Origin: a virus
UHGV virus genome: UHGV-1728491
Reading direction: 5' to 3' (one strand)
DNA length: 14,974 bases
Shown here one piece after another: positions 1,626 to 12,038 of this stretch. Position numbers and translations under genes: made by a program. The first letter of the stretch is position 1. Each line of letters starts with the position of its first letter. The notes below the pieces were generated by a model. That model ran no database searches. It was not told where the DNA came from and worked only from the letters and a program-made list of their open reading frames with translations.

Positions 1626-1766
1626 TTATGACAAGCCTATGTACCCTGCTACACCAGATAATATCAAAATAACTGCAACAGCAAATTCGCCATCGTCAAT
1701 GATACATTTACGGTTCATAACGCCAAGTGCAACAAGCGCAAACACAACAAGAATAAAAGCAATCAT
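1626..1766 (-). CDS. Small hydrophobic protein, 46 aa, two predicted transmembrane segments; function unknown
   Basis: Hand-translated (below the 60-aa track cutoff): MIAFILVVFALVALGVMNRKCIIDDGEFAVAVILILSGVAGYIGLS, stop TAA at 1626-1628. SD AAGGA is 6 nt before the ATG (rc of 1764-1766) and overlaps the stop of the upstream 824-aa gene. Two hydrophobic stretches flank a charged loop (NRKCIIDDGE). Confidence 0.55.
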   Translation of the reverse strand: MIAFILVVFALVALGVMNRKCIIDDGEFAVAVILILSGVAGYIGLS

Positions 1767-1775
1767 TTCTCATCC

Positions 1776-4250
1776 TTATTGCGGAGTGACATCCTGTGGT
1801 CGCCACCAGTATGTCTGGTTAAACTCTTTCTTCGAACGTTGCTCCATTTTACGCAAATAACCTGGTGAAAAATACTCCTGCATCTGGTTAAAGATCATGT
1901 GATCGAGAGACGCCTTTAAGTACCAGAGATTCGCACCTGGCATCAGACCTTTCCCCAGCTTAACCAGATCACCACCAGTCTGCTCATTCTTCCCTTCCAC
2001 AGCATTTAACGGTATGCCCTGAGCAATCTTCACTACGTCATCAACCAGACCAGCTACCGGGCCAAGCATCGACGCCAGCGCGCCGCTTCCGTACCTAGTG
2101 TGATCTGACAATAAAAAGTCACCGTAAAGGCCAAGACCACCACCTTTCAGTAGAGCACCAAGCCAAAATTTAGCAGTATCTTCTCCTGTCATCTCGCGAG
2201 GATTACGACCAGACGCAAGGTCGTTAAGTTGCTGCGACAAAGCGCCAAGAATGGTCGTACTGGCAATAAACGTCGCAATATATGCCGCACGCCCACCAGC
2301 AGACGGCATACCCATAGCGCGTGACCAGTGACGCATAACCACCGAGATAGGGAACGATTTAAACAGGAAAACACTTCTCGTTAATTCACCTTTCCATGTT
2401 CCACGCTGAATACCAGAACCGGTTATCAGTTGCTCACGTGCTCCCGGTGTAATAACAGCCATATCAACTTCTTCAGTTACGGCACCGAGCAGTTTACGCA
2501 TTGCCTCAAATTTCACGCGTTCAGGCTCACCAAGATGTTTAACTGCTGAATCAGGGATACGCATAATGCTTTCCGGTGTCAGCATCGTATTATTACCGTT
2601 CCCCCAGTCCTCCTGTTGCGCCAGCTTCCATACACTCCAGTCTGTGTCAGTAATCCCTTTGCTTTTCAGGATACGAAAATCAGAGTCATCGAGGCTACGA
2701 AGGTCTGGCGTCCGTGACACTACTTCTCCCAGGCTTCCCATCATGGTTACGCCATAGGCGCGCTTGTGCGCATCTGACCATGCTGTAAGCCCACTGGCAC
2801 GCATTACGGCCGTTGCCGCCCAACGAGACACTGACGGCCCCATATTATCCATCGCCCAGCGGTTAACGCTGCCAAGTAGAGATTCCATCGCCAGACCAGC
2901 GCGGCGCGCCCGCACAAGTTCTGTACGGTTCGTTGGGTCCATAGCTTCAAGCTGGTTGCGGAATAACTGGTTCATTGGAAGGTTGGTAACCTTCGCCGAC
3001 AGATACATGGTTCCAAGATCAGAGAACGATGACAGCAACGCGGATCCGAGTCTGCTGGCAACCAGCCAGTTGCGGATATTGTCAGACCATCGCGCGATGT
3101 GCGGATTCGCTACAGGCTGTGTCTTTCCGGAAATAAAGTTGTACAGATTCTCTGTGTTGTTCGCCAGCCGCTCGACTTTACCGGTTTTACTCGGGTTAGC
3201 TGTTGCCGTTTCTGCCTTCACCTGATCAAGAAGAGAGCGGAAAACATGATCGGGGTTTGGGCCATATGTTTCCACCAGTGCAATATCTTTACTGATACCT
3301 TCCAGGTGACCGACCATGATTTCCCATAGAGAGCGATCGCCATAAAGTTGCTGATATTGCAGATAGGAATCTGCATCTTTGAAATGTATCTGTCGTGATG
3401 CATTACCACGGTTAGCACGTGCGCCGGAAATTCGCATTCCGGTATCAGTAAGCTTATTCAGCCCACCAGTAGCGATCGTGTTATAAGCCTCTCCAAGAAA
3501 TGCAGACAACTCAGCATCGTTCATCAGTTGTCCATCGGCTCGGGTATAATATTTGCGATCCAACTTACCTATAACATCGCTAACCCACTTATCCTTTGAT
3601 ACCGCCCCAACCTTTTCCATAGAATGATGTTGAGGGATCCCCCAGTTTTCGAGATAGCCAATGTCCCCACCAGCATCATTAAACCGGCGGCGCAGTAGCT
3701 CTGTCACTTCTCTCCACGCCTTAGCACCTTTTCTTGCTTTAGCATTGCCAGTATTTTGCCCCCGCATTTCATATACCAGGTCACGTACGCCCGCTTCATC
3801 TTCAAACAGACCAAAAAAGCGAGGATCAACTGCTTCGAATGCCTCCTGCAATTGACTCAATGCATAATCACGGGTGGCTTTTGTTCTGGATTCAACAGAG
3901 AGGAAATTCGATTTACCGTCTGCATTAAAAGCAATAGTACGGTTAAGAGCACCGAGTTTCCCATCAGCCCCTTGATAGCTATTGATAAATTTATCCAATC
4001 TCTGACGTGCGGCTATAGTGAGGGCCACACGACGTTTATTTAATGCCGCTTCTCGCTGTAATTCTTCAGATGCCAATTGTGCTGCTCGATATAGCCGCTC
4101 TGATTCGGAAAGTTGTCGCCACGACATCGGGTCATCACGAGCAATGGAGCGCATATTTCGATAAATGCGGTCTTCAATGTTCTGTATTTCTCGCGCCGTT
4201 AACGTGCGCTGCGCCGCCTGCTGGACCGCTTGTATACATTCCTGTCTCAT
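1776..4250 (-). CDS. Large internal virion / ejection protein (824 aa); C-terminal region resembles the C-terminal part of T7 gp16-type internal virion protein D
   Basis: Long ORF with own ATG (rc of 4248-4250) 5 nt after the stop of the preceding gene; a GAGG 9 nt upstream overlaps the end of the upstream gene. Last gene of the tail/ejection cassette. Gly/Ala-rich hydrophobic C-terminal third (…GGRAAYIATFIASTTILGALSQ…GGGLGLYGDFLL…) resembles what I recall of the T7 gp16 C-terminus. Unverified. Confidence 0.7.
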   Translation of the reverse strand: MRQECIQAVQQAAQRTLTAREIQNIEDRIYRNMRSIARDDPMSWRQLSESERLYRAAQLASEELQREAALNKRRVALTIAARQRLDKFINSYQGADGKLGALNRTIAFNADGKSNFLSVESRTKATRDYALSQLQEAFEAVDPRFFGLFEDEAGVRDLVYEMRGQNTGNAKARKGAKAWREVTELLRRRFNDAGGDIGYLENWGIPQHHSMEKVGAVSKDKWVSDVIGKLDRKYYTRADGQLMNDAELSAFLGEAYNTIATGGLNKLTDTGMRISGARANRGNASRQIHFKDADSYLQYQQLYGDRSLWEIMVGHLEGISKDIALVETYGPNPDHVFRSLLDQVKAETATANPSKTGKVERLANNTENLYNFISGKTQPVANPHIARWSDNIRNWLVASRLGSALLSSFSDLGTMYLSAKVTNLPMNQLFRNQLEAMDPTNRTELVRARRAGLAMESLLGSVNRWAMDNMGPSVSRWAATAVMRASGLTAWSDAHKRAYGVTMMGSLGEVVSRTPDLRSLDDSDFRILKSKGITDTDWSVWKLAQQEDWGNGNNTMLTPESIMRIPDSAVKHLGEPERVKFEAMRKLLGAVTEEVDMAVITPGAREQLITGSGIQRGTWKGELTRSVFLFKSFPISVVMRHWSRAMGMPSAGGRAAYIATFIASTTILGALSQQLNDLASGRNPREMTGEDTAKFWLGALLKGGGLGLYGDFLLSDHTRYGSGALASMLGPVAGLVDDVVKIAQGIPLNAVEGKNEQTGGDLVKLGKGLMPGANLWYLKASLDHMIFNQMQEYFSPGYLRKMEQRSKKEFNQTYWWRPQDVTPQ

Positions 4251-4255
4251 TTAAT

Positions 4256-6058
4256 TTAACCTCTCAAGAAACACGCCACAGCGACATCAAACAGGCTGGA
4301 ATCCTGTATTGCCTGCTCACTTTCCCTGTTCGCTTCATCCAGTACTTCACGCGCACTGCGCGATTGTGGATTACCATCATCATCCAGCACGGTGATTATC
4401 ATGTCAGGTGATTCAAGCAGCGAGTCTTCAGCTATGCGCAGATCAATATCTCCTGCCTGATCTGACATCATTTTTTGTTCTGCCTGTTGCAATATTTTAT
4501 CAGGCTCAAAAGGAGCTACTTCGTCTGGCGTCCTGACCTCTGCTGTTTTATAGAATGAAACAGCCTGAGCATTAAGTTCACTTTCTGCCTGCTGTCTCCG
4601 AGCCAGTTCTGCTCGAGCTTCAAAAAACTGACCGCCAGGCTCGTGCGGTGCCAACGCGTTACGGGAAAATTCCAGGCGTTCTTGTGCCTGCCGGATTCGT
4701 TGATCAATATCGCGAAGTCTGGCCTGTTTATCTGATCGAGCACGAGACAAAGCTTTACCGCTACCGGTTGGCTCTTCTGCAAGAATTTGTGCACGCTGTT
4801 CAGTGAGATTTTCAATAATTCGTTGGCTATTAGCGATTTCAGACTGGTAAACCTGTCTATCTCCACGCGGCAAAAGCTGCGCGGCCTGTTCTTCAAGCAA
4901 CCGATTTTCTATAGCGCGCGCCGTTACTCCATCATCTACAGATGACAGAGCCTCATTAACTTCCTGAGACAGCAGACTCTTGCGCCCAGGAATTTCACTG
5001 AAAGATGCAGACTCAACAATGCTCGCAACGTCTACAGGTCTCCCCTGGCTAACATCAGACATGGCTTTTCGCAGAGCCTGAATGTGCGAATTACGCGAAA
5101 GCACGTTGATCGGAACGCCGGGAGCAATATCAATTTCAGCATGATGAGCGGCATTCGCCGCCAGTGCAGCATCGATATCAACTGGTGAAAAATTTGGTGC
5201 GCTTGTAGGCTCGCCGCGAGAGTTAATAAATCTGCCGACACCACCAAACGCCACCCCAAGAACAGCATCAATAGCAATTGCCTGTCGATCCAACACATCA
5301 TACTGGTTAGCCATTTCGCTATAGCCACCATCACGAAGCGTTTTTGCAGTAAGCCCACGCTGTGCCATACCGAACGCAATATTTGTACCTGCGGCATAGG
5401 CAATATCTGGCGTTGCACGTACTGCTGTTGCTGCGGCGCGTCGCACTGAACTTTCCCCCGTCCGCGCAAGCTGAGCCGCCACACCTTCCGCCAGCGCACC
5501 GCCAGCACGTAACCCGAGGCTCATTGGGATCAGTGTTCCGGCACCAGCAGTAATACCATGCACTAATCCCGCTTCCTGCGCCGTCCTGAAATCAACACCC
5601 TGTGCTGTCAGCCGTTCAAACTCAGAAAAACCCTGTAGAGAAGTTACTGCCGCAGCACCTCCGACCGGACCACCGAGCGTTGTACCGACAACAGCCTGCC
5701 CGCCCATATCGAACAACCCATAAAGGACCTGCCCGGCGGTTCCGGTTGTCGCGGCATCAGGCGTCAGCCGCTTAACCTGCTGCTCTGCTAGTTTTCTCTG
5801 CTCAGCAATGTATGAAACTGAAGTGTCATTGAGCGAGGTGTTTTCGTTAACAAACTGAGCAATCGGGGATACGATTTTATCCATCCCTGCCCATAGCAAC
5901 TGATCTGGCTTTGCCACCAGCCCGGAGTACAAACCAGACAATGCCGCTCCTACAGCATTGTCGAAAAAACCAACATCGCTGTTAAAGCCAGCTGGATTTG
6001 ATGCTGCTTCGTCAAGCTGCTGATTCTGGTTTACTGGATTAAGGCCAAAGTAACTCAT
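4256..6058 (-). CDS. Internal virion / ejection protein (600 aa): Gly/Ala-rich hydrophobic N-terminal half, coiled-coil and acidic C-terminal half
   Basis: Long ORF in the ejection-protein position. ATG (rc of 6056-6058) has GGAG 9 nt upstream and overlaps the 3' end of the preceding gene by 20 nt. Composition is typical of membrane-inserting ejection proteins. No family-level match recognised. Confidence 0.65.
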   Translation of the reverse strand: MSYFGLNPVNQNQQLDEAASNPAGFNSDVGFFDNAVGAALSGLYSGLVAKPDQLLWAGMDKIVSPIAQFVNENTSLNDTSVSYIAEQRKLAEQQVKRLTPDAATTGTAGQVLYGLFDMGGQAVVGTTLGGPVGGAAAVTSLQGFSEFERLTAQGVDFRTAQEAGLVHGITAGAGTLIPMSLGLRAGGALAEGVAAQLARTGESSVRRAAATAVRATPDIAYAAGTNIAFGMAQRGLTAKTLRDGGYSEMANQYDVLDRQAIAIDAVLGVAFGGVGRFINSRGEPTSAPNFSPVDIDAALAANAAHHAEIDIAPGVPINVLSRNSHIQALRKAMSDVSQGRPVDVASIVESASFSEIPGRKSLLSQEVNEALSSVDDGVTARAIENRLLEEQAAQLLPRGDRQVYQSEIANSQRIIENLTEQRAQILAEEPTGSGKALSRARSDKQARLRDIDQRIRQAQERLEFSRNALAPHEPGGQFFEARAELARRQQAESELNAQAVSFYKTAEVRTPDEVAPFEPDKILQQAEQKMMSDQAGDIDLRIAEDSLLESPDMIITVLDDDGNPQSRSAREVLDEANRESEQAIQDSSLFDVAVACFLRG

Positions 6059-8567
6059 TCGGAATATCTCCGGAGAATCTCTGACGCTTCTGTGTCAGAT
6101 TAAGAACAACGGGAGAACCATCATCTTTCAGCAGATAACCAGTACCAAGTTTCACCAGGTACTGACTATCGCCGTAACTTTGCAAACCATACTGACCAGG
6201 CGGTGTTTTTATCCCGGAGCCGACAACTTGTTCATTCCAAGCCTGATTAACCTGCTTATCGAATTGCTCCGCAGACATTCCCCACGGCAAAAGGACATTC
6301 CCCATTCCGTTATAGTCATGCACGCCACCTGTAGCTACGTTAACAGCCTGTTTCCAGACATCATTGTCAATTTCGCCTGATACCACGCCTTTTTTCGCCA
6401 TCACACCAGCGTAATAATCCTTTGCGATCTCGTATGCCATTGATGCCCCCTGAGCGTCACCAGCAAATGCATCCTTCACCATGTCAGAAAACTCAAGGCG
6501 AAGATCAGCATCTTTAGGCATCGGAATACCTTTCGCATCATCAGTACCTTTACGAGCCGCCGCGCCAGCAAGAATTGTCTGCGCAGCGGTTTCAGGAGAC
6601 ACGGAAACATCCGGATTAAACCAGTTTTTTTCTGCCAAAATACCACCTGGCTTATCCATCAGTATCCCGGCAACGGCAGCAGATGGAGCGTTGGCACTGA
6701 TCTGCTGTAGTGCTGACATATACACCTGCCCACCACCAGTGCTCTGCCTGATGGTATCGAGATATGCTGCCTGTTGGGAAACTGGAGCATCACGAAAGAA
6801 AACACCGATCTGATTGGCCTCATCTTTGGAAAAGAACGTCAGTGGAGTGCCATATGACTTAGCAAGGTCACTGACCTGAGCGGCACGCAAGGCAACGCTC
6901 TGTCCAAAGTTATCCTTATTGCTCATGTCGATAGGCTTTGCCTGTCCGGCGGCAAGAGAGAACTGCACAGGATCCGATTGCCGCTGCTTTATCACCTGAT
7001 TTGCAGCCGAAACAACGTTGTCATAAAGAGCTGCGCGTGCCGCATACCCCTCCCCTGTCTCACCAGTATCCGGGCGTAATTGCTCAACATATGCTGTAAT
7101 GCTGCTTGTCGGCATGTTGCGGAAAGAGCCTATATACTGTCCGGCGATTTGCGTATTTCTGAACTCGGTATATCGCAGGTTTCCTTCTCTGACTCCATAA
7201 GCTGCAATAAAATCAGCCTCACCAGGTGGGTTAGGAAATTCAACGCCACGCATATACGCAGATGTCGCATCGCGAACTTGGCTGTCAATCATCGTTTTAT
7301 ATTCAGCCTGCTGCTGCCGACGCAGTTGATCCGCCTGTCGCATAAAACTTGCCTGCGCCTCAGGAGATGCCGCATCGAATGCTGCATTACCGGTATAGCG
7401 TTTGGTGTTGGTTGGAATTGTTGATAAACCAAGTGCTGCACTGACACCAGCAGTTAACTGCTGATCACTGTATGGCTGGCTACCGTTCTCATGATGGATA
7501 ATGGCTGCACAAAGCGCCTTCAGGGTATCAGGATTAGATGCATCGAGAGGCTCATCAGCAGAAACGCCAAGTTGTTCGCACACTGCTTTGATATACGACA
7601 TAGTGTCATTTTTATCAGTAGGCGGTGCCCAGCGATTAATTATCTCGCTGACGGTATCGATACCCTGCCGCTGATACGACATCAGGTTACGCCCTAATGC
7701 ACGAATCCCGTGCTCAGGTGTTTCGAATTTAGCAAATCGACCATCATCACCGGTCTGGCCTACCCACGGATTAGTTTTGCTGTATTCGAGATTTCCTGGG
7801 TTATTGTTGCGTATGCCACGGGCACGCTCGGAAGAGTCATTATCTGCTACAGCACGGCGAGCTCCAGCAGCAGTATCACTTAACTCGCCATTACTTTGGA
7901 TGAATGCGGTCGCATTGTTTGCCGACCACTGGGACAATGCGGCATCAGCAACCTTCTCTTTAAACTCGATTTTCTTGGCCTGTATTTGCTCGTCGCTCCA
8001 GCCATGCGCAACGCCGTAATCCTCAATTTGCTGGAAAGTTTGCTTATTAGCCAATACGTATGCGGCGTTGTCGCCATACAATGCTGCGGCATTTTTACCA
8101 TTGTTCAGCAGCGTCGCCTGAAACTGGCCTTCTTCGTAGGAATTTATTTGCCCTATCTCGTGCCGCCCGGCCTGCGTAGTGAACTGAATGCGCTGCTGCT
8201 GCGCCTGCTGCATGAAAGCATTACGAGCCTGTTCATCCGGCAGCGACATAGCCAGTTGCTCGACCTGGGCATCAAACTGCTGCGTATACTCCTGACCTTT
8301 TCCAATAGCATTTTTCCCTTTCAGGTTAAGCAATCCTGTTTCAGGATTATTCAGCAGATCACTGCTTATCTGACTGAGGTTAAGAGATGCCTCCTGAGCC
8401 AGAGCGATATTGGCACGCTGTTTTGCCTGCCCCAAAACATCAATTGCCTCTGTCCCTGCCCGAACAAAAGCATCACTAATACCTAGCTGAGAAAACGTCT
8501 GCAAGCCTGCTGACTGAACTCCACGACTCTCAACCTGACGTCCGGATACTGTTGGTACGACTGGCAT
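6039..8567 (-). CDS. Large internal virion / ejection protein (842 aa from the preferred start), gp15/gp16-class; contains a conserved hydrophilic NNNPGN block of possible enzymatic function
   Basis: The track gives 867 aa from 8642, but the ATG at rc 8565-8567 has a strong SD GGAGGA (rc of 8573-8578) and forms a TAATG stop/start overlap with the gp14-like gene, so I place the start at 8567. Follows the gp14-like gene as in T7-type cassettes. Conserved-looking block RGIRNNNPGNLEYSKTNPWVG…IINRWAPPTDKNDT at nt ~7443-7820. Confidence 0.65.
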   Translation of the reverse strand: MPVVPTVSGRQVESRGVQSAGLQTFSQLGISDAFVRAGTEAIDVLGQAKQRANIALAQEASLNLSQISSDLLNNPETGLLNLKGKNAIGKGQEYTQQFDAQVEQLAMSLPDEQARNAFMQQAQQQRIQFTTQAGRHEIGQINSYEEGQFQATLLNNGKNAAALYGDNAAYVLANKQTFQQIEDYGVAHGWSDEQIQAKKIEFKEKVADAALSQWSANNATAFIQSNGELSDTAAGARRAVADNDSSERARGIRNNNPGNLEYSKTNPWVGQTGDDGRFAKFETPEHGIRALGRNLMSYQRQGIDTVSEIINRWAPPTDKNDTMSYIKAVCEQLGVSADEPLDASNPDTLKALCAAIIHHENGSQPYSDQQLTAGVSAALGLSTIPTNTKRYTGNAAFDAASPEAQASFMRQADQLRRQQQAEYKTMIDSQVRDATSAYMRGVEFPNPPGEADFIAAYGVREGNLRYTEFRNTQIAGQYIGSFRNMPTSSITAYVEQLRPDTGETGEGYAARAALYDNVVSAANQVIKQRQSDPVQFSLAAGQAKPIDMSNKDNFGQSVALRAAQVSDLAKSYGTPLTFFSKDEANQIGVFFRDAPVSQQAAYLDTIRQSTGGGQVYMSALQQISANAPSAAVAGILMDKPGGILAEKNWFNPDVSVSPETAAQTILAGAAARKGTDDAKGIPMPKDADLRLEFSDMVKDAFAGDAQGASMAYEIAKDYYAGVMAKKGVVSGEIDNDVWKQAVNVATGGVHDYNGMGNVLLPWGMSAEQFDKQVNQAWNEQVVGSGIKTPPGQYGLQSYGDSQYLVKLGTGYLLKDDGSPVVLNLTQKRQRFSGDIPNELLWP

Positions 8568-9112
8568 TATAATCCTCCGGGTAATCTGGTTCCTGCTGCC
8601 GCCCCGATTGGCGCAGGGGTGCTTTGAGTAAACGGACTCCACGTCCCACCAAACATCTGGTACGCACCGTATGCCTTCAGAGGCGCAGTGAGCAATGTTG
8701 TTGCTGCTCCCACATTCCCCTGTTTACGGGCTGAACTGGCTTCTGCTTTATAGTTGGCAGCCTGAACCTGATAACCGTAAGCCTCGCGTTGCGCGTTATT
8801 CACCGTCGTTAGCGAATCAAGAGCGCCAAACTGAGCAGTGTCACCAAATATATCCAGCGCGTTACCTGTAGATAAATCAGCGCCGGTCGCCCCCATTGTC
8901 GCCGCCTGTGTACCAAGCCGCTGTCGGGTCTCTCTGCGCCGTTGCTCAGCTTCAGCGTTACCTCTGTTTATTGCATCATTTGCCTGAGCTGTGGCTATAT
9001 CTGCGTTCGCTTCTGCAACCTTCGAGGCATACTTTCCCTGTTGGTACTGGGTGTATGCCTGAATGCCACTCATGGCGAGCATTGCGCCACCAGCAATAAC
9101 CGGATCGCACAT
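8567..9112 (-). CDS. Internal virion protein B-like (T7 gp14-like), 181 aa
   Basis: ATG overlaps the upstream stop (TAATG at 9110-9114). N-terminus MCDPVIAGGAMLAMSGIQAY has a hydrophobic segment; Ala/Gln-rich middle; C-terminus …APIGAAAGTRLPGGL. Size, position after the gp13-like gene and N/C-terminal pattern match what I recall of T7 gp14 (196 aa). Memory-based. Confidence 0.6.
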   Translation of the reverse strand: MCDPVIAGGAMLAMSGIQAYTQYQQGKYASKVAEANADIATAQANDAINRGNAEAEQRRRETRQRLGTQAATMGATGADLSTGNALDIFGDTAQFGALDSLTTVNNAQREAYGYQVQAANYKAEASSARKQGNVGAATTLLTAPLKAYGAYQMFGGTWSPFTQSTPAPIGAAAGTRLPGGL

Positions 9113-9576
9113 TATTTTCTCTCCATGTGAAATCTGTGGAAATTAAGACCAAGAGCACCATAAGGCGCGGCTTCTTCAAGCCTGAATCCAAGCCAGTGCA
9201 GCCATGCTTTGGCAACATGGTTTCGCTCGTCGACGTAGTTTTCCAGGCGCGGATAAACTGCCAGCATCTGCTGCAATACAGGGCGGCAGTGGCGCAGAAA
9301 TGTCTTCTGATATTTTTCAATACGGCTGGTTCCGACCAGCCAGGGCGTACCATTGCCACCGATCATTGACGCCGGAGATACACCAAACATGGTTACCAGT
9401 TCTCCGTTCGCGAACCCTGACCAAGCCATAGTCGCAGTGCGAAGACCAACACGCAGCGCATCTTCGGTAGTCATCAGCGATACCGCATACAGTTCGTCAA
9501 TATCAGCCTGACGAACATCCGGCAAAATCATCTGAAGATGCTCTTCGGTAGCGGGAATAATTTGAACATCAATCAT
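9112..9576 (-). CDS. Internal virion protein A-like (T7 gp13-like position), 154 aa
   Basis: ATG overlaps the stop of the gp12-like gene (ATGA at 9574-9578). Size and position between gp12-like and gp14-like genes match the gp13 slot. Call is positional only. Confidence 0.45.
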   Translation of the reverse strand: MIDVQIIPATEEHLQMILPDVRQADIDELYAVSLMTTEDALRVGLRTATMAWSGFANGELVTMFGVSPASMIGGNGTPWLVGTSRIEKYQKTFLRHCRPVLQQMLAVYPRLENYVDERNHVAKAWLHWLGFRLEEAAPYGALGLNFHRFHMERK

Positions 9577-12038
9577 CAGAATCCCCCAACAGTAAGGCGA
9601 GGAATAACGGCAAGAACAGACAGCGGCAACGGGTCAAGCTGAAGGATTCTTACACGTCCGTTTTTGCCCCAGTTACTGTCCAGTTTCACTTCTACTTTTC
9701 CGGTAGCGTCATCAACAGGATCATCGTAGAACTCGAATTCACGCTGTGGATATTCGTACCATTTACCGCCGGGCGTAGTCGCCCAGATGCCGCGGCTGGC
9801 ATTCACAACCAGAGTAACGGATGGGATCACCTGTTTTTTGTCCAGCAGCGTTTCCTGTCCGTTAATGTTGATATCCAGTGTTTCGAATTCAGCAGTTATT
9901 GGCAGGCCGATGTGCACTACAGCCCCCGGTGATTCCAGCGTGACGGCACCTCCGGAAACTACTTTCTGTGGTTCCACGTTCGCATCAGAGAGGATGTTTA
10001 CGGTCTGACCTTCAAGATGAGACAAGCCGCCAAATGCCCGGCGCGCCATCTGCCAGTTCGTGGTGGCCACATTCCTGAGGGATGGCGGGACGTTCCTGTT
10101 AGCACGAACCACTACAGCGGTGTTGCTGGTTACAGAAATAATGTCGCAACGTAATTCTTTTGCGCCAGTATCAGGATCAGTTCCGGTATAAGGGAACTGT
10201 AGTTGCGCACCGACATCACTACTGGTGAAGTACGCACCACCAGAAATACTGATTGTATATTCCGCGCGGTAATCCCATTCGCCAGAACCACCAGTGATGG
10301 TCATCGTTCTGTCAGACGTATTTCTTCCATCATAGCTAAGGCCAGAATCAACAAAGAAAGCATCTTCATCGCTGGTAAATAAACGGCTGGACAGTCGCTC
10401 GATGTATCTCACTTTTTGCCCGTTAACGGTTCGGTTAACGACGAAATACACCGCATCTTCATTGCCTTCGCTGATACTGCATGTGCTTTCATATTTTCCG
10501 GTACTGGATTGTGGTGCCCATGCAAAAACCTGCTGATCACGCAAATAGGTCATCACCAGTAATTTACCGTCATCACGAATGCAGAAGGCGCTGGAGTAAG
10601 GGACAATCGAGAAGCACCAGTCAACAATGCTGTGCTTCTGAAAAAGATGATTGGCAAGGATAGTCAGGTCGTTCCCCTGATAGCCGTCAACATCGAATGA
10701 ATAGGCCAGATCACGGACAACACTGCCTTTCTCCTGGACGAACAGAGCAATATTCGCCACGGCAATTGGTGGGACGTTGCTTGAGCCATTTGATCCCTGA
10801 GAGCTGAATGCAAATGATGATGGGGTTAACACTTTGTTCTGGTCGCCGGTGATGACGTACTCACCTCCGGAAGTCAGTGCCACCAGCGAACCGACATCAA
10901 TCAGGTGGCGGATCTCATTAACCTGACGCCCGGCATAGGTGTAGATAATTCTGTCGTCATCCTGCGTAGGATTGCTTTTGCCAAAATCCTTATAATCCCC
11001 AGTACGGCTGGCCCAGATAGTCTGAGGGAACGCAGTCGATGCGGCGAAGTAAAGACGTTGTTGATAATAAACAACAGTGCCAGGATAACCATTAACACTG
11101 TTCCAGGCATATTTAGCCCATTTATAGCTGGCATTATCCTCGCCAACTATCTGCGAAGGGATATAGGAAATCACCTCGGCAGTTGCAGTAGTTCCATTTG
11201 CAGCAGTGATACGGGCAATGCCAAAACCACTGTGCAGATATTCCCACTCAATGCCAGTGTCATCATCACCGGATCCGCCCCAGCCATCCCATGATGTGCC
11301 TTCTGTATGCGAAGGGCGCAAAGTGCCTGTTTTGCCTGCTGTAACGGCGCGATAGTAGTTACTGTCTGCACGGCGAATATCGCCAATCGACGTACTCTTA
11401 CTGGTTTCCCATACCGGTACTGAATCCACTGCTGGCTGTTCCAGATAGAACAATTTTCCTACCTGCTCCGCGCCAAAAATAGAGGCGCTTGCCGTTAACG
11501 TAATTGTCCCGGTGCTGGCGCTGGCATAAACCGTCACTGACTCGTCAATATTGATATCTTCAAATGGCCCGTTCTTCGTTACTACATCAACCAGTTGCCA
11601 GTTGTCATGCGCATAGCGGCGCAACTCTTTCGGCGGGTATGCCGGATGAACCAGCGTAAGCACGTCTGCGCTTTGCGTGAATTTAATTCGGAACAGATCG
11701 GCTTCAGTATATGGCGTGGCAATTTCATAAATAACATTGCTGCTGTTCAGCACCAACGCACCATCTTTGATAACGCGCATGTACTGGTGTCCGAACTCCA
11801 GAGCATAGGTCTGAACCGTCGAGAACTGGAACGGGATCAGGCGGCATTTCCGATTTGGGTATTTGGCGGCACCGACAAAACGCGTACCAGGTCGATTCTC
11901 AACGCCGCCATACTGCCGCACGATAAAGTTATCGCACTTGCGCAATGCCACCTGGTACTTCGCCATGTCGATACGACCGTACAACGACGGTCCAATCTCA
12001 CCACCGGCAAAGCTGGGCTGTATCCAACTGATAGCCAT
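9576..12038 (-). CDS. Tail tubular protein B / nozzle protein (T7 gp12-like), 820 aa
   Basis: Long ORF. ATG (rc of 12036-12038) overlaps the upstream stop (TGATG), with GAGG 8 nt upstream. Several segments (N-terminal MAISWIQPSFAGGEIGPS…; central …WASRTGDYKDFGKSNPTQDDDRIIYTYAG…SGGEYVITGDQNKVLTPSSFAFS…) parallel the T7 gp12 sequence as I recall it. Follows a ~200-aa gp11-like gene. Confidence 0.7.
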   Translation of the reverse strand: MAISWIQPSFAGGEIGPSLYGRIDMAKYQVALRKCDNFIVRQYGGVENRPGTRFVGAAKYPNRKCRLIPFQFSTVQTYALEFGHQYMRVIKDGALVLNSSNVIYEIATPYTEADLFRIKFTQSADVLTLVHPAYPPKELRRYAHDNWQLVDVVTKNGPFEDINIDESVTVYASASTGTITLTASASIFGAEQVGKLFYLEQPAVDSVPVWETSKSTSIGDIRRADSNYYRAVTAGKTGTLRPSHTEGTSWDGWGGSGDDDTGIEWEYLHSGFGIARITAANGTTATAEVISYIPSQIVGEDNASYKWAKYAWNSVNGYPGTVVYYQQRLYFAASTAFPQTIWASRTGDYKDFGKSNPTQDDDRIIYTYAGRQVNEIRHLIDVGSLVALTSGGEYVITGDQNKVLTPSSFAFSSQGSNGSSNVPPIAVANIALFVQEKGSVVRDLAYSFDVDGYQGNDLTILANHLFQKHSIVDWCFSIVPYSSAFCIRDDGKLLVMTYLRDQQVFAWAPQSSTGKYESTCSISEGNEDAVYFVVNRTVNGQKVRYIERLSSRLFTSDEDAFFVDSGLSYDGRNTSDRTMTITGGSGEWDYRAEYTISISGGAYFTSSDVGAQLQFPYTGTDPDTGAKELRCDIISVTSNTAVVVRANRNVPPSLRNVATTNWQMARRAFGGLSHLEGQTVNILSDANVEPQKVVSGGAVTLESPGAVVHIGLPITAEFETLDININGQETLLDKKQVIPSVTLVVNASRGIWATTPGGKWYEYPQREFEFYDDPVDDATGKVEVKLDSNWGKNGRVRILQLDPLPLSVLAVIPRLTVGGF

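Follow-up and report, generated by a model that had tools for sequence, protein, structure and literature searches.

Does the 842-residue protein encoded at positions 6039..8567 (minus strand) of UHGV virus genome UHGV-1728491 carry an enzyme that degrades the bacterial cell wall? The whole stretch of 14,974 nucleotides (the window) had first been interpreted from its letters and open reading frames (ORFs) alone, and this sequence-only reading singled out positions 7443-7820 as a conserved block within a presumed ejection protein, possibly a cell-wall-degrading domain. The analysis reported here indicates that the block very probably serves as catalytic domain in a virion-associated peptidoglycan hydrolase of the Enc34/PM2-P5/PHA02564 type, set between two helical regions of an internal virion protein from a phiV10/epsilon15-like temperate podophage of E. 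coli; the domain would be active, carried in the virion, ejected and so timed as to open the sacculus at DNA injection, and the bond that it cleaves is likewise predicted.

The gene and its reading frame

The block lies within the following gene:

6039..8567, minus strand: gene of the 842-residue virion protein, with an ATG start at 8567, a GGAGG Shine-Dalgarno sequence upstream and a TAA stop at 6039-6041

Positions 7443-7820 are translated on the minus strand as RGIRNNNPGNLEYSK...HHENGSQPYSDQQLTAGV, corresponding to residues 250-375 of the 842-residue protein; the peptide begins with RGIRNNNPGN and closes with HHENGSQPYSDQQLTAGV in this numbering, and the plus-strand frames of the same interval are full of stops. 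The longest ORF, 6039..8642 on the minus strand, gives 867 residues from an upstream GTG. The likely start, as judged from sequence, is the ATG at 8567 rather than this GTG, since GGAGG precedes the ATG and the ATG overlaps the stop of the upstream 181-residue gene (TAATG). The earlier placing of the block at residues ~275-400 thus identified the right block, but in the numbering of the 867-residue GTG form.

The gene is 97.8-98.4% identical in nucleotide sequence to its counterparts in Escherichia phages phiv142-3, ZX5 and phiV10, which are epsilon15-like temperate podophages of the Uetakevirus type. Its product is the equivalent of phiV10 p18 and epsilon15 gp15 and is matched over its full length by phrog_992. 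In the phiV10 record p18 carries the label 'head protein', with a note of its similarity to PM2 structural protein P5.

A discrete and conserved domain

The whole 842-residue protein was searched by tblastn against 50,697 phage records, of which 831 matched. Matches in 28 of these cover at least 80% of the protein, and about 800 are confined to residues ~245-385. The domain-only matches are found in unrelated phages, namely Kayfunavirus, chi-like siphophages, D3112-like Pseudomonas phages, PM2-like corticoviruses and Microviridae. Two alignments were used for conservation: A1, with 38 domain homologues, and A2, with 14 sequences of the full-length type (the window protein and 13 relatives at 20-95% identity). 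All 42 invariant columns of A2 (42/42) lie inside residues 250-379, and identity to the 11 distant relatives is 0.57 over residues 245-385, 0.21 before this segment and 0.15 after it. An AlphaFold2 (AF2) model of the domain (residues 235-396, 38 homologues) had a mean predicted local distance difference test score (pLDDT) of 88.1 and a predicted template modelling score (pTM) of 0.80, with pLDDT >90 over residues ~255-384.

The domain-only matches, the contrast in conservation within A2 and the confident domain model together establish the block as a discrete, conserved and well-folded domain, and so bear out its original description as compact and globular:

7413..7823, minus strand: Enc34/PM2-P5/PHA02564-type peptidoglycan hydrolase domain, residues ~249-385, placed by matches, alignments and model

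The interval 7443-7820 captured the right block, but the domain runs about 10 residues further, to ~385 (window position 7413). The surroundings had been called Gln/Ala-rich and low-complexity; the composition agrees (Ala 12.8%, Gln 8.8%), but the flanks are predicted to form long helices and are not really low-complexity. These flank helices rest on low confidence, as the full-length AF2 model from the 14-sequence alignment was poor (pLDDT 58, pTM 0.32).

The commonest E. coli prophage version of the protein is a 935-residue form (e.g. P0123), which agrees with the window protein at 95-99% identity on either side of an extra module of ~104 residues (…GNINLFNRPSVKNEDGTISTV…EVLIPTV…LYEKTGKHLGIF…) located between residues 242 and 249 (~window 7821-7841, minus strand). 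The insertion falls exactly at the N-terminal edge of the domain, so that this domain boundary is also a module junction. No Pfam or PDB match was found for the extra module, which other podophages also carry in their 'IVP-C-like' and 'DNA transfer' proteins.

Family assignment and proposed catalytic residues

Scans of the whole protein against Pfam-A and NCBIfam returned no family, even at E up to 1. In a phmmer search of the PDB, the protein matched residues 3-146 of Kayfunavirus Gp29 (9vvp chain L, 1295 residues) at E 4e-38 and ~55% identity, and the Enc34 endolysin's catalytic domain (7q47) at E 2.8e-17. No publication was found for PDB entry 9vvp, nor for 8ck1, which is used below; Gp29 was named by tblastn, its aligned segment being 98-99% identical to the N-terminus of the Kayfunavirus gp16-like internal virion protein D. 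When the domain model was submitted to Foldseek, 7q47 was returned at E 1.8e-11 and no other PDB entry fell below E 1. The predicted fold is the all-helical fold of the Enc34 catalytic domain, with 44% identity and a root mean square deviation (rmsd) of 1.5 Å to 7q47. BSPM4, YSD1, PM2-like and Stenotrophomonas S1 lysins are also among the tblastn matches. An identification of 7q47 as the Pae87 lysozyme (Pfam Muramidase, PF11860) was dropped, since the Pae87 entries are 7q4s and 7q4t and 7q47 is the Enc34 endolysin.

For Enc34, a signature of Trp79, Tyr95 and catalytic Glu131 has been proposed, which is common to GH73 and GH23 enzymes (PMC8943055). The pairing of W313, Y325 and E360 of the window protein with W79, Y95 and E131 was taken from the HMMER (phmmer) alignment to 7q47. 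The features concerned are as follows:

7791..7820, minus strand: RGIRNNNPGN motif, residues 250-259, which serves as the family's N-terminal signature and in A1 and A2 is either invariant or conserved to at least 90%
7629..7631, minus strand: Trp313 (in NRWAPP, codon TGG), equivalent of Enc34 Trp79 with a proposed role in substrate positioning, at least 90% conserved in A1 and invariant in A2
7593..7595, minus strand: Tyr325 (in MSYIKA, codon TAT), equivalent of Enc34 Tyr95, invariant in A1 and A2
7488..7490, minus strand: Glu360 (in HHENG, codon GAG), counterpart of Glu131, for which a catalytic role is proposed in Enc34, and invariant in both A1 and A2

The N-terminal loop of the family (L1) sits at the substrate groove (PMC9502842, PMC8943055), and by analogy the corresponding loop of the window protein may do the same. 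The domain belongs to the Enc34/PM2-P5/PHA02564 peptidoglycan hydrolase family, of which it shows every defining feature that can be computed. Muralytic activity on Gram-negative peptidoglycan has been measured for two members, and a third member has been re-annotated. Enc34 ORF39deltaC lyses permeabilised Gram-negative cells (PMC8943055); M4LysdeltaTMD, from Salmonella phage BSPM4, degrades purified peptidoglycan, and liquid chromatography-mass spectrometry of the products pointed to an N-acetylglucosaminidase with a hint of endopeptidase (PMC7143992); for PM2 P5 the annotation was revised to an Enc34-like lysin, which has this triad too (PMC9502842). The family match, the muralytic relatives and the retained Trp/Tyr/Glu signature support the sequence-only reading in its proposal of a cell-wall-degrading enzyme, which the domain probably is, and the family that it could not name can now be named. 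That reading had asked for structure prediction and for conservation of catalytic residues, and had held that a non-enzymatic fold or a lack of conservation would speak against an enzyme; the domain model takes the fold of the enzyme 7q47, and the three residues are kept in both alignments.

These data also bear on whether the domain might be an inert or peptidoglycan-binding module, that is, a structural part, an anchor by which the sacculus holds the ejected tube, or a core for folding or assembly of the protein. Its position in mid-protein between long helical regions would suit such a module, under standard conditions T7 does not need the gp16 transglycosylase (cited in PMC8954989), and the activity of the window protein is itself predicted from sequence. 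The Glu and the Trp/Tyr pair, however, do not vary even among relatives whose overall identity is only 20-25%, no other part of the protein comes near the domain in conservation, and the structure to which it shows 44% identity and 1.5 Å rmsd is that of an active enzyme. We therefore hold an inert module to be very improbable.

Predicted nature of the bond cleaved

The sequence-only reading had drawn its analogy with T7 gp16, which has an N-terminal lytic transglycosylase. The analogy holds for the placing of the domain in related phages: the same domain forms the N-terminus of the Kayfunavirus gp16-like 'internal virion protein with endolysin domain', the position held by the transglycosylase in T7 gp16, and it is also present in a Providencia phage internal virion protein D. 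It does not extend to the enzyme family. No SLT/GH23 profile matched when the whole protein was scanned against Pfam-A at E up to 1, and the arrangement that marks the GH23 fold, in which the helix before the core helices bears the catalytic Glu, was not found in the domain. The domain would work like the T7 gp16 transglycosylase but is not a member of GH23/SLT.

The bond cleaved would most likely be N-acetylglucosamine (GlcNAc)-beta-1,4-N-acetylmuramic acid (MurNAc), by analogy with M4Lys. A different chemistry with the same entry role, in which a lytic transglycosylase or muramidase cuts MurNAc-beta-1,4-GlcNAc like T7 gp16, is unlikely but has to be taken seriously. Many phage records name the gp16 N-terminal homologue 'peptidoglycan lytic exotransglycosylase' or 'transglycosylase', phrog_7182, which matches the protein, is named 'tail injection transglycosylase', and the single catalytic Glu fits a transglycosylase mechanism, that of GH23 being compatible with one such residue. 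These database names were transferred by position, and the window protein has no Pfam SLT match. The sole muropeptide analysis in the family, made with M4Lys, found loss of GlcNAc and was read as glucosaminidase activity (PMC7143992); outside the family, the GH73 glucosaminidase TM0633 is structurally the nearest, and the authors of the Enc34 study also concluded in favour of a glucosaminidase (PMC8943055). A glucosaminidase therefore remains the preferred assignment.

Two further variants, which have no specific support, together appear quite improbable. In one the domain would be bifunctional, combining a glucosaminidase with a D-Glu-meso-diaminopimelate endopeptidase as hinted for M4Lys; in the other it would be inactive in the capsid, switched on by refolding on ejection, and afterwards bound to the cut sacculus as an anchor of the trans-periplasmic tube.

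Probable role at entry

Gene order bears on the place of the hydrolase in the infection cycle. Two neighbouring genes are as follows:

8567..9112, minus strand: gene of a 181-residue internal virion protein of the T7 gp14 family (Pfam PF24072 T7_gp14, 31.2 bits against a cutoff of 27; phrog_418 'internal virion protein')
9576..12038, minus strand: gene of the 820-residue tail nozzle (PDB 8ck1_A 'Tail Nozzle', matched over full length at E 1.5e-216; phrog_376 'tail protein')

On the minus strand the order is a 202-residue adaptor-like tail protein (phrog_394), the 820-residue nozzle, a 154-residue protein (phrog_308 'internal virion protein'), and then the 181-, 842-, 600- and 824-residue proteins. 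Starts and stops within this structural block overlap or abut, and the large genes are co-oriented. The layout is T7-like, with the nozzle followed by internal or ejection proteins. In phiV10 a separate cassette of holin, GH19 (chitinase-like) endolysin and Rz/Rz1 lies elsewhere, and the endolysin of epsilon15 is likewise GH19 (PMC12391199). Because the gene follows those of the T7_gp14-family protein and the nozzle, and because the lysis cassette of phiV10 is separate, the protein would be a virion-associated entry hydrolase rather than a lysis enzyme.

A role in lysis, as an endolysin or auxiliary lysin acting at the end of infection and not at entry, was weighed against the same gene order. 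The first members of the family to be characterised were true endolysins (Enc34 ORF39, M4Lys), and phrog_1044, phrog_873 and phrog_10475, which match parts of the protein, are labelled 'endolysin'. The gene, however, stands in an operon of tail and internal proteins and is translationally coupled to the gp14-family gene, the near-identical phiV10 has its complete holin - GH19 endolysin - Rz/Rz1 cassette elsewhere, and the protein, at 842 residues, is without the C-terminal transmembrane domain that Enc34-type endolysins require for lysis. Canonical endolysins are encoded beside holin and spanin genes and are small or carry a membrane or signal-arrest-release (SAR) segment, a pattern that this gene and its product do not show. 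A lysis-phase role is accordingly very improbable, the least likely of the alternatives considered here.

As an entry hydrolase, the protein may be pictured acting as follows. On infection, the internal proteins would exit the capsid via the nozzle, the gp14-like protein passing to the outer membrane and the 842-residue protein to the periplasm. There the hydrolase domain would cut glycan strands locally, with Glu360 as the putative catalytic acid and Trp313 and Tyr325 positioning the sugar, after which the trans-envelope DNA conduit of ejected proteins could cross the sacculus. By analogy with T7 gp16, the hydrolase may be required only against a heavily cross-linked wall. Epsilon15 possesses an internal core, and its core proteins form a tube that spans the periplasm at infection, as summarised in PMC5850374 and PMC12391199; hydrolase modules are known to move between ejection proteins (PMC8954989).

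Several points weigh against this picture of an ejected glucosaminidase. The epsilon15 equivalent gp15 is presumably a virion protein, and Guichard and co-workers reportedly placed it in 2013 in the central tail tube and not in the internal core; because of that placement, 'ejection protein' is here a term drawn from synteny. No experiment showing muralytic activity of the window protein, epsilon15 gp15 or phiV10 p18 was found in the literature consulted, which comprised no epsilon15 primary papers. Outside the hydrolase domain, the flanks of the 842-residue protein gave no Pfam or PDB sequence match, no similarity to T7 gp15 or gp16 being detected, and the full-length model is weak (pLDDT 58). 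Indications of bond specificity differ within the family, as the M4Lys study also hints at an endopeptidase and speaks of a muramidase in one legend (PMC7143992), and lytic transglycosylase is the name given to the homologous domain in many database records. The row for 'Epsilon 15' in Table 1 of PMC8954989 (gp11, 229 residues; gp12, 499 residues; gp13, 708 residues) does not fit the gene cassette, is apparently mis-assigned and was not used.

Comparison with known systems

The window domain has the RNNNPGN motif and the Trp/Tyr/Glu signature in common with Enc34 ORF39 (PDB 7Q47; CDD PHA02564) and M4Lys. These are lysis-cassette enzymes of ~26 kDa with a C-terminal two-helix membrane domain, whereas the window domain is internal (residues 249-385), its protein has no membrane segment and its gene belongs to a structural operon. 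P5 of corticovirus PM2 and the homologues known as 'structural protein P5' from Vinavirales, Microviridae and D3112-like phages carry a domain of the same family, but they are small stand-alone proteins (~130-220 residues) of tailless or unrelated viruses, and some of them have a C-terminal membrane anchor.

The closest solved relative of the domain is that of the gp16-like protein D of Kayfunavirus (K1F-like Autographiviridae; 9vvp Gp29, LM33_P1 gp43), which is also an internal or ejection protein of a podophage. There the domain stands at the extreme N-terminus of a 1295-residue gp16 homologue encoded by the last gene of the gp14-15-16 cassette; in the window, by contrast, it stands in mid-protein, and the gene directly follows the gp14 homologue. 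The flanks of the two proteins are unrelated, and the matches cover only residues 250-399. A wall-cleaving module is also found in phiKMV gp36, as a C-terminal lysozyme domain following the same logic. In T7 gp16, with its N-terminal GH23/SLT lytic transglycosylase, such a module on an ejected protein lets the DNA conduit cross the sacculus (PMC8954989).

Annotation and spread of the family

The arrangement described here is ordinary and already known, and no new biology is implied. A phage gene of 98% identity was already deposited in 2005, the structure of the family was published in 2022, and its use in internal virion proteins of podophages is already on record in database names and in 9vvp. 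No paper was found that ties Uetakevirus, epsilon15 or phiV10 (gp15/p18) to a virion peptidoglycan hydrolase. In public records, proteins of the phiV10 p18/epsilon15 gp15 type go under the names 'head protein', 'capsid and scaffold' or 'hypothetical'. The main value of the result lies in annotation: these proteins may be relabelled as internal virion proteins that contain a peptidoglycan hydrolase domain of the Enc34 type. The epsilon15-like phages would thereby gain a wall-opening activity that was left unassigned in a review of ejection proteins (PMC8954989). In the same cassette, the PF24072 match of the 181-residue protein provides a sequence link to the T7 ejectosome.

A second outcome is a very large family for which neither Pfam nor NCBIfam has a model. 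A profile search of 1.84 billion cluster representatives (50%-identity clusters) returned 18,002 members at E<=1e-3 and 12,662 at E<=1e-10. The proteins that carry the domain range from 134 to 1739 residues, and the domain is N-terminal, internal or C-terminal within them. The Enc34/P5-type domain is thus a very large and mobile family, and it is systematically missed because no Pfam-A or NCBIfam model exists. The top representative in the profile search (P0241, 762 residues) has four matched stretches and may contain tandem copies.

Flanking regions and neighbouring genes

On either side of the domain the 842-residue protein comprises two regions:

7824..8567, minus strand: N-terminal region, residues 1-248, predicted to form long helices (AF2 helices 32-226, pLDDT ~80-90 in a model that is weak overall)
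6039..7412, minus strand: C-terminal region, residues 386-842, mostly helical and poorly conserved (phrog_35810 matches residues 637-836)

Three families, phrog_19141, phrog_36437 and phrog_10475, match only residues 1-~248 and carry different C-terminal parts. No transmembrane segment was found in the 842-residue protein.

The gene is followed by two further large genes of the structural block:

4256..6058, minus strand: gene of a 600-residue protein, epsilon15 gp16-like, overlapping the end of the 842-residue gene by 20 nucleotides
1776..4250, minus strand: gene of an 824-residue 'virion structural protein' resembling epsilon15 gp17, with which the presumed ejection cassette ends

The 600-residue protein is presumed from its position to be a further internal or ejection protein. 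Neither it nor the 824-residue protein had a Pfam or PDB match, and a PDB sequence search with the 181-residue protein returned nothing; the close match of the 820-residue protein to 8ck1 means that a structure of an epsilon15-like nozzle exists. Directly after the 824-residue gene, a 46-residue ORF (1626-1766, minus strand) with two hydrophobic stretches closes the structural block as its last small gene; the counterpart in phiV10 is p21, 'putative integral membrane protein'. An uncharacterised ORF of 126 residues lies at 1202-1582 on the plus strand.

At the left end, the tailspike gene leaves the window (positions 1-~650, minus strand). The leftmost ~550 nucleotides have no match among phage records at megablast level; from ~554 on, identity to phiV10-type phages is ~89-92%, in two pieces spanning 2.2 kb of phiV10. 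From this span, the window lacks ~1 kb of phiV10, the Bro-N anti-repressor region, and it appears to carry a different distal part of the tailspike.

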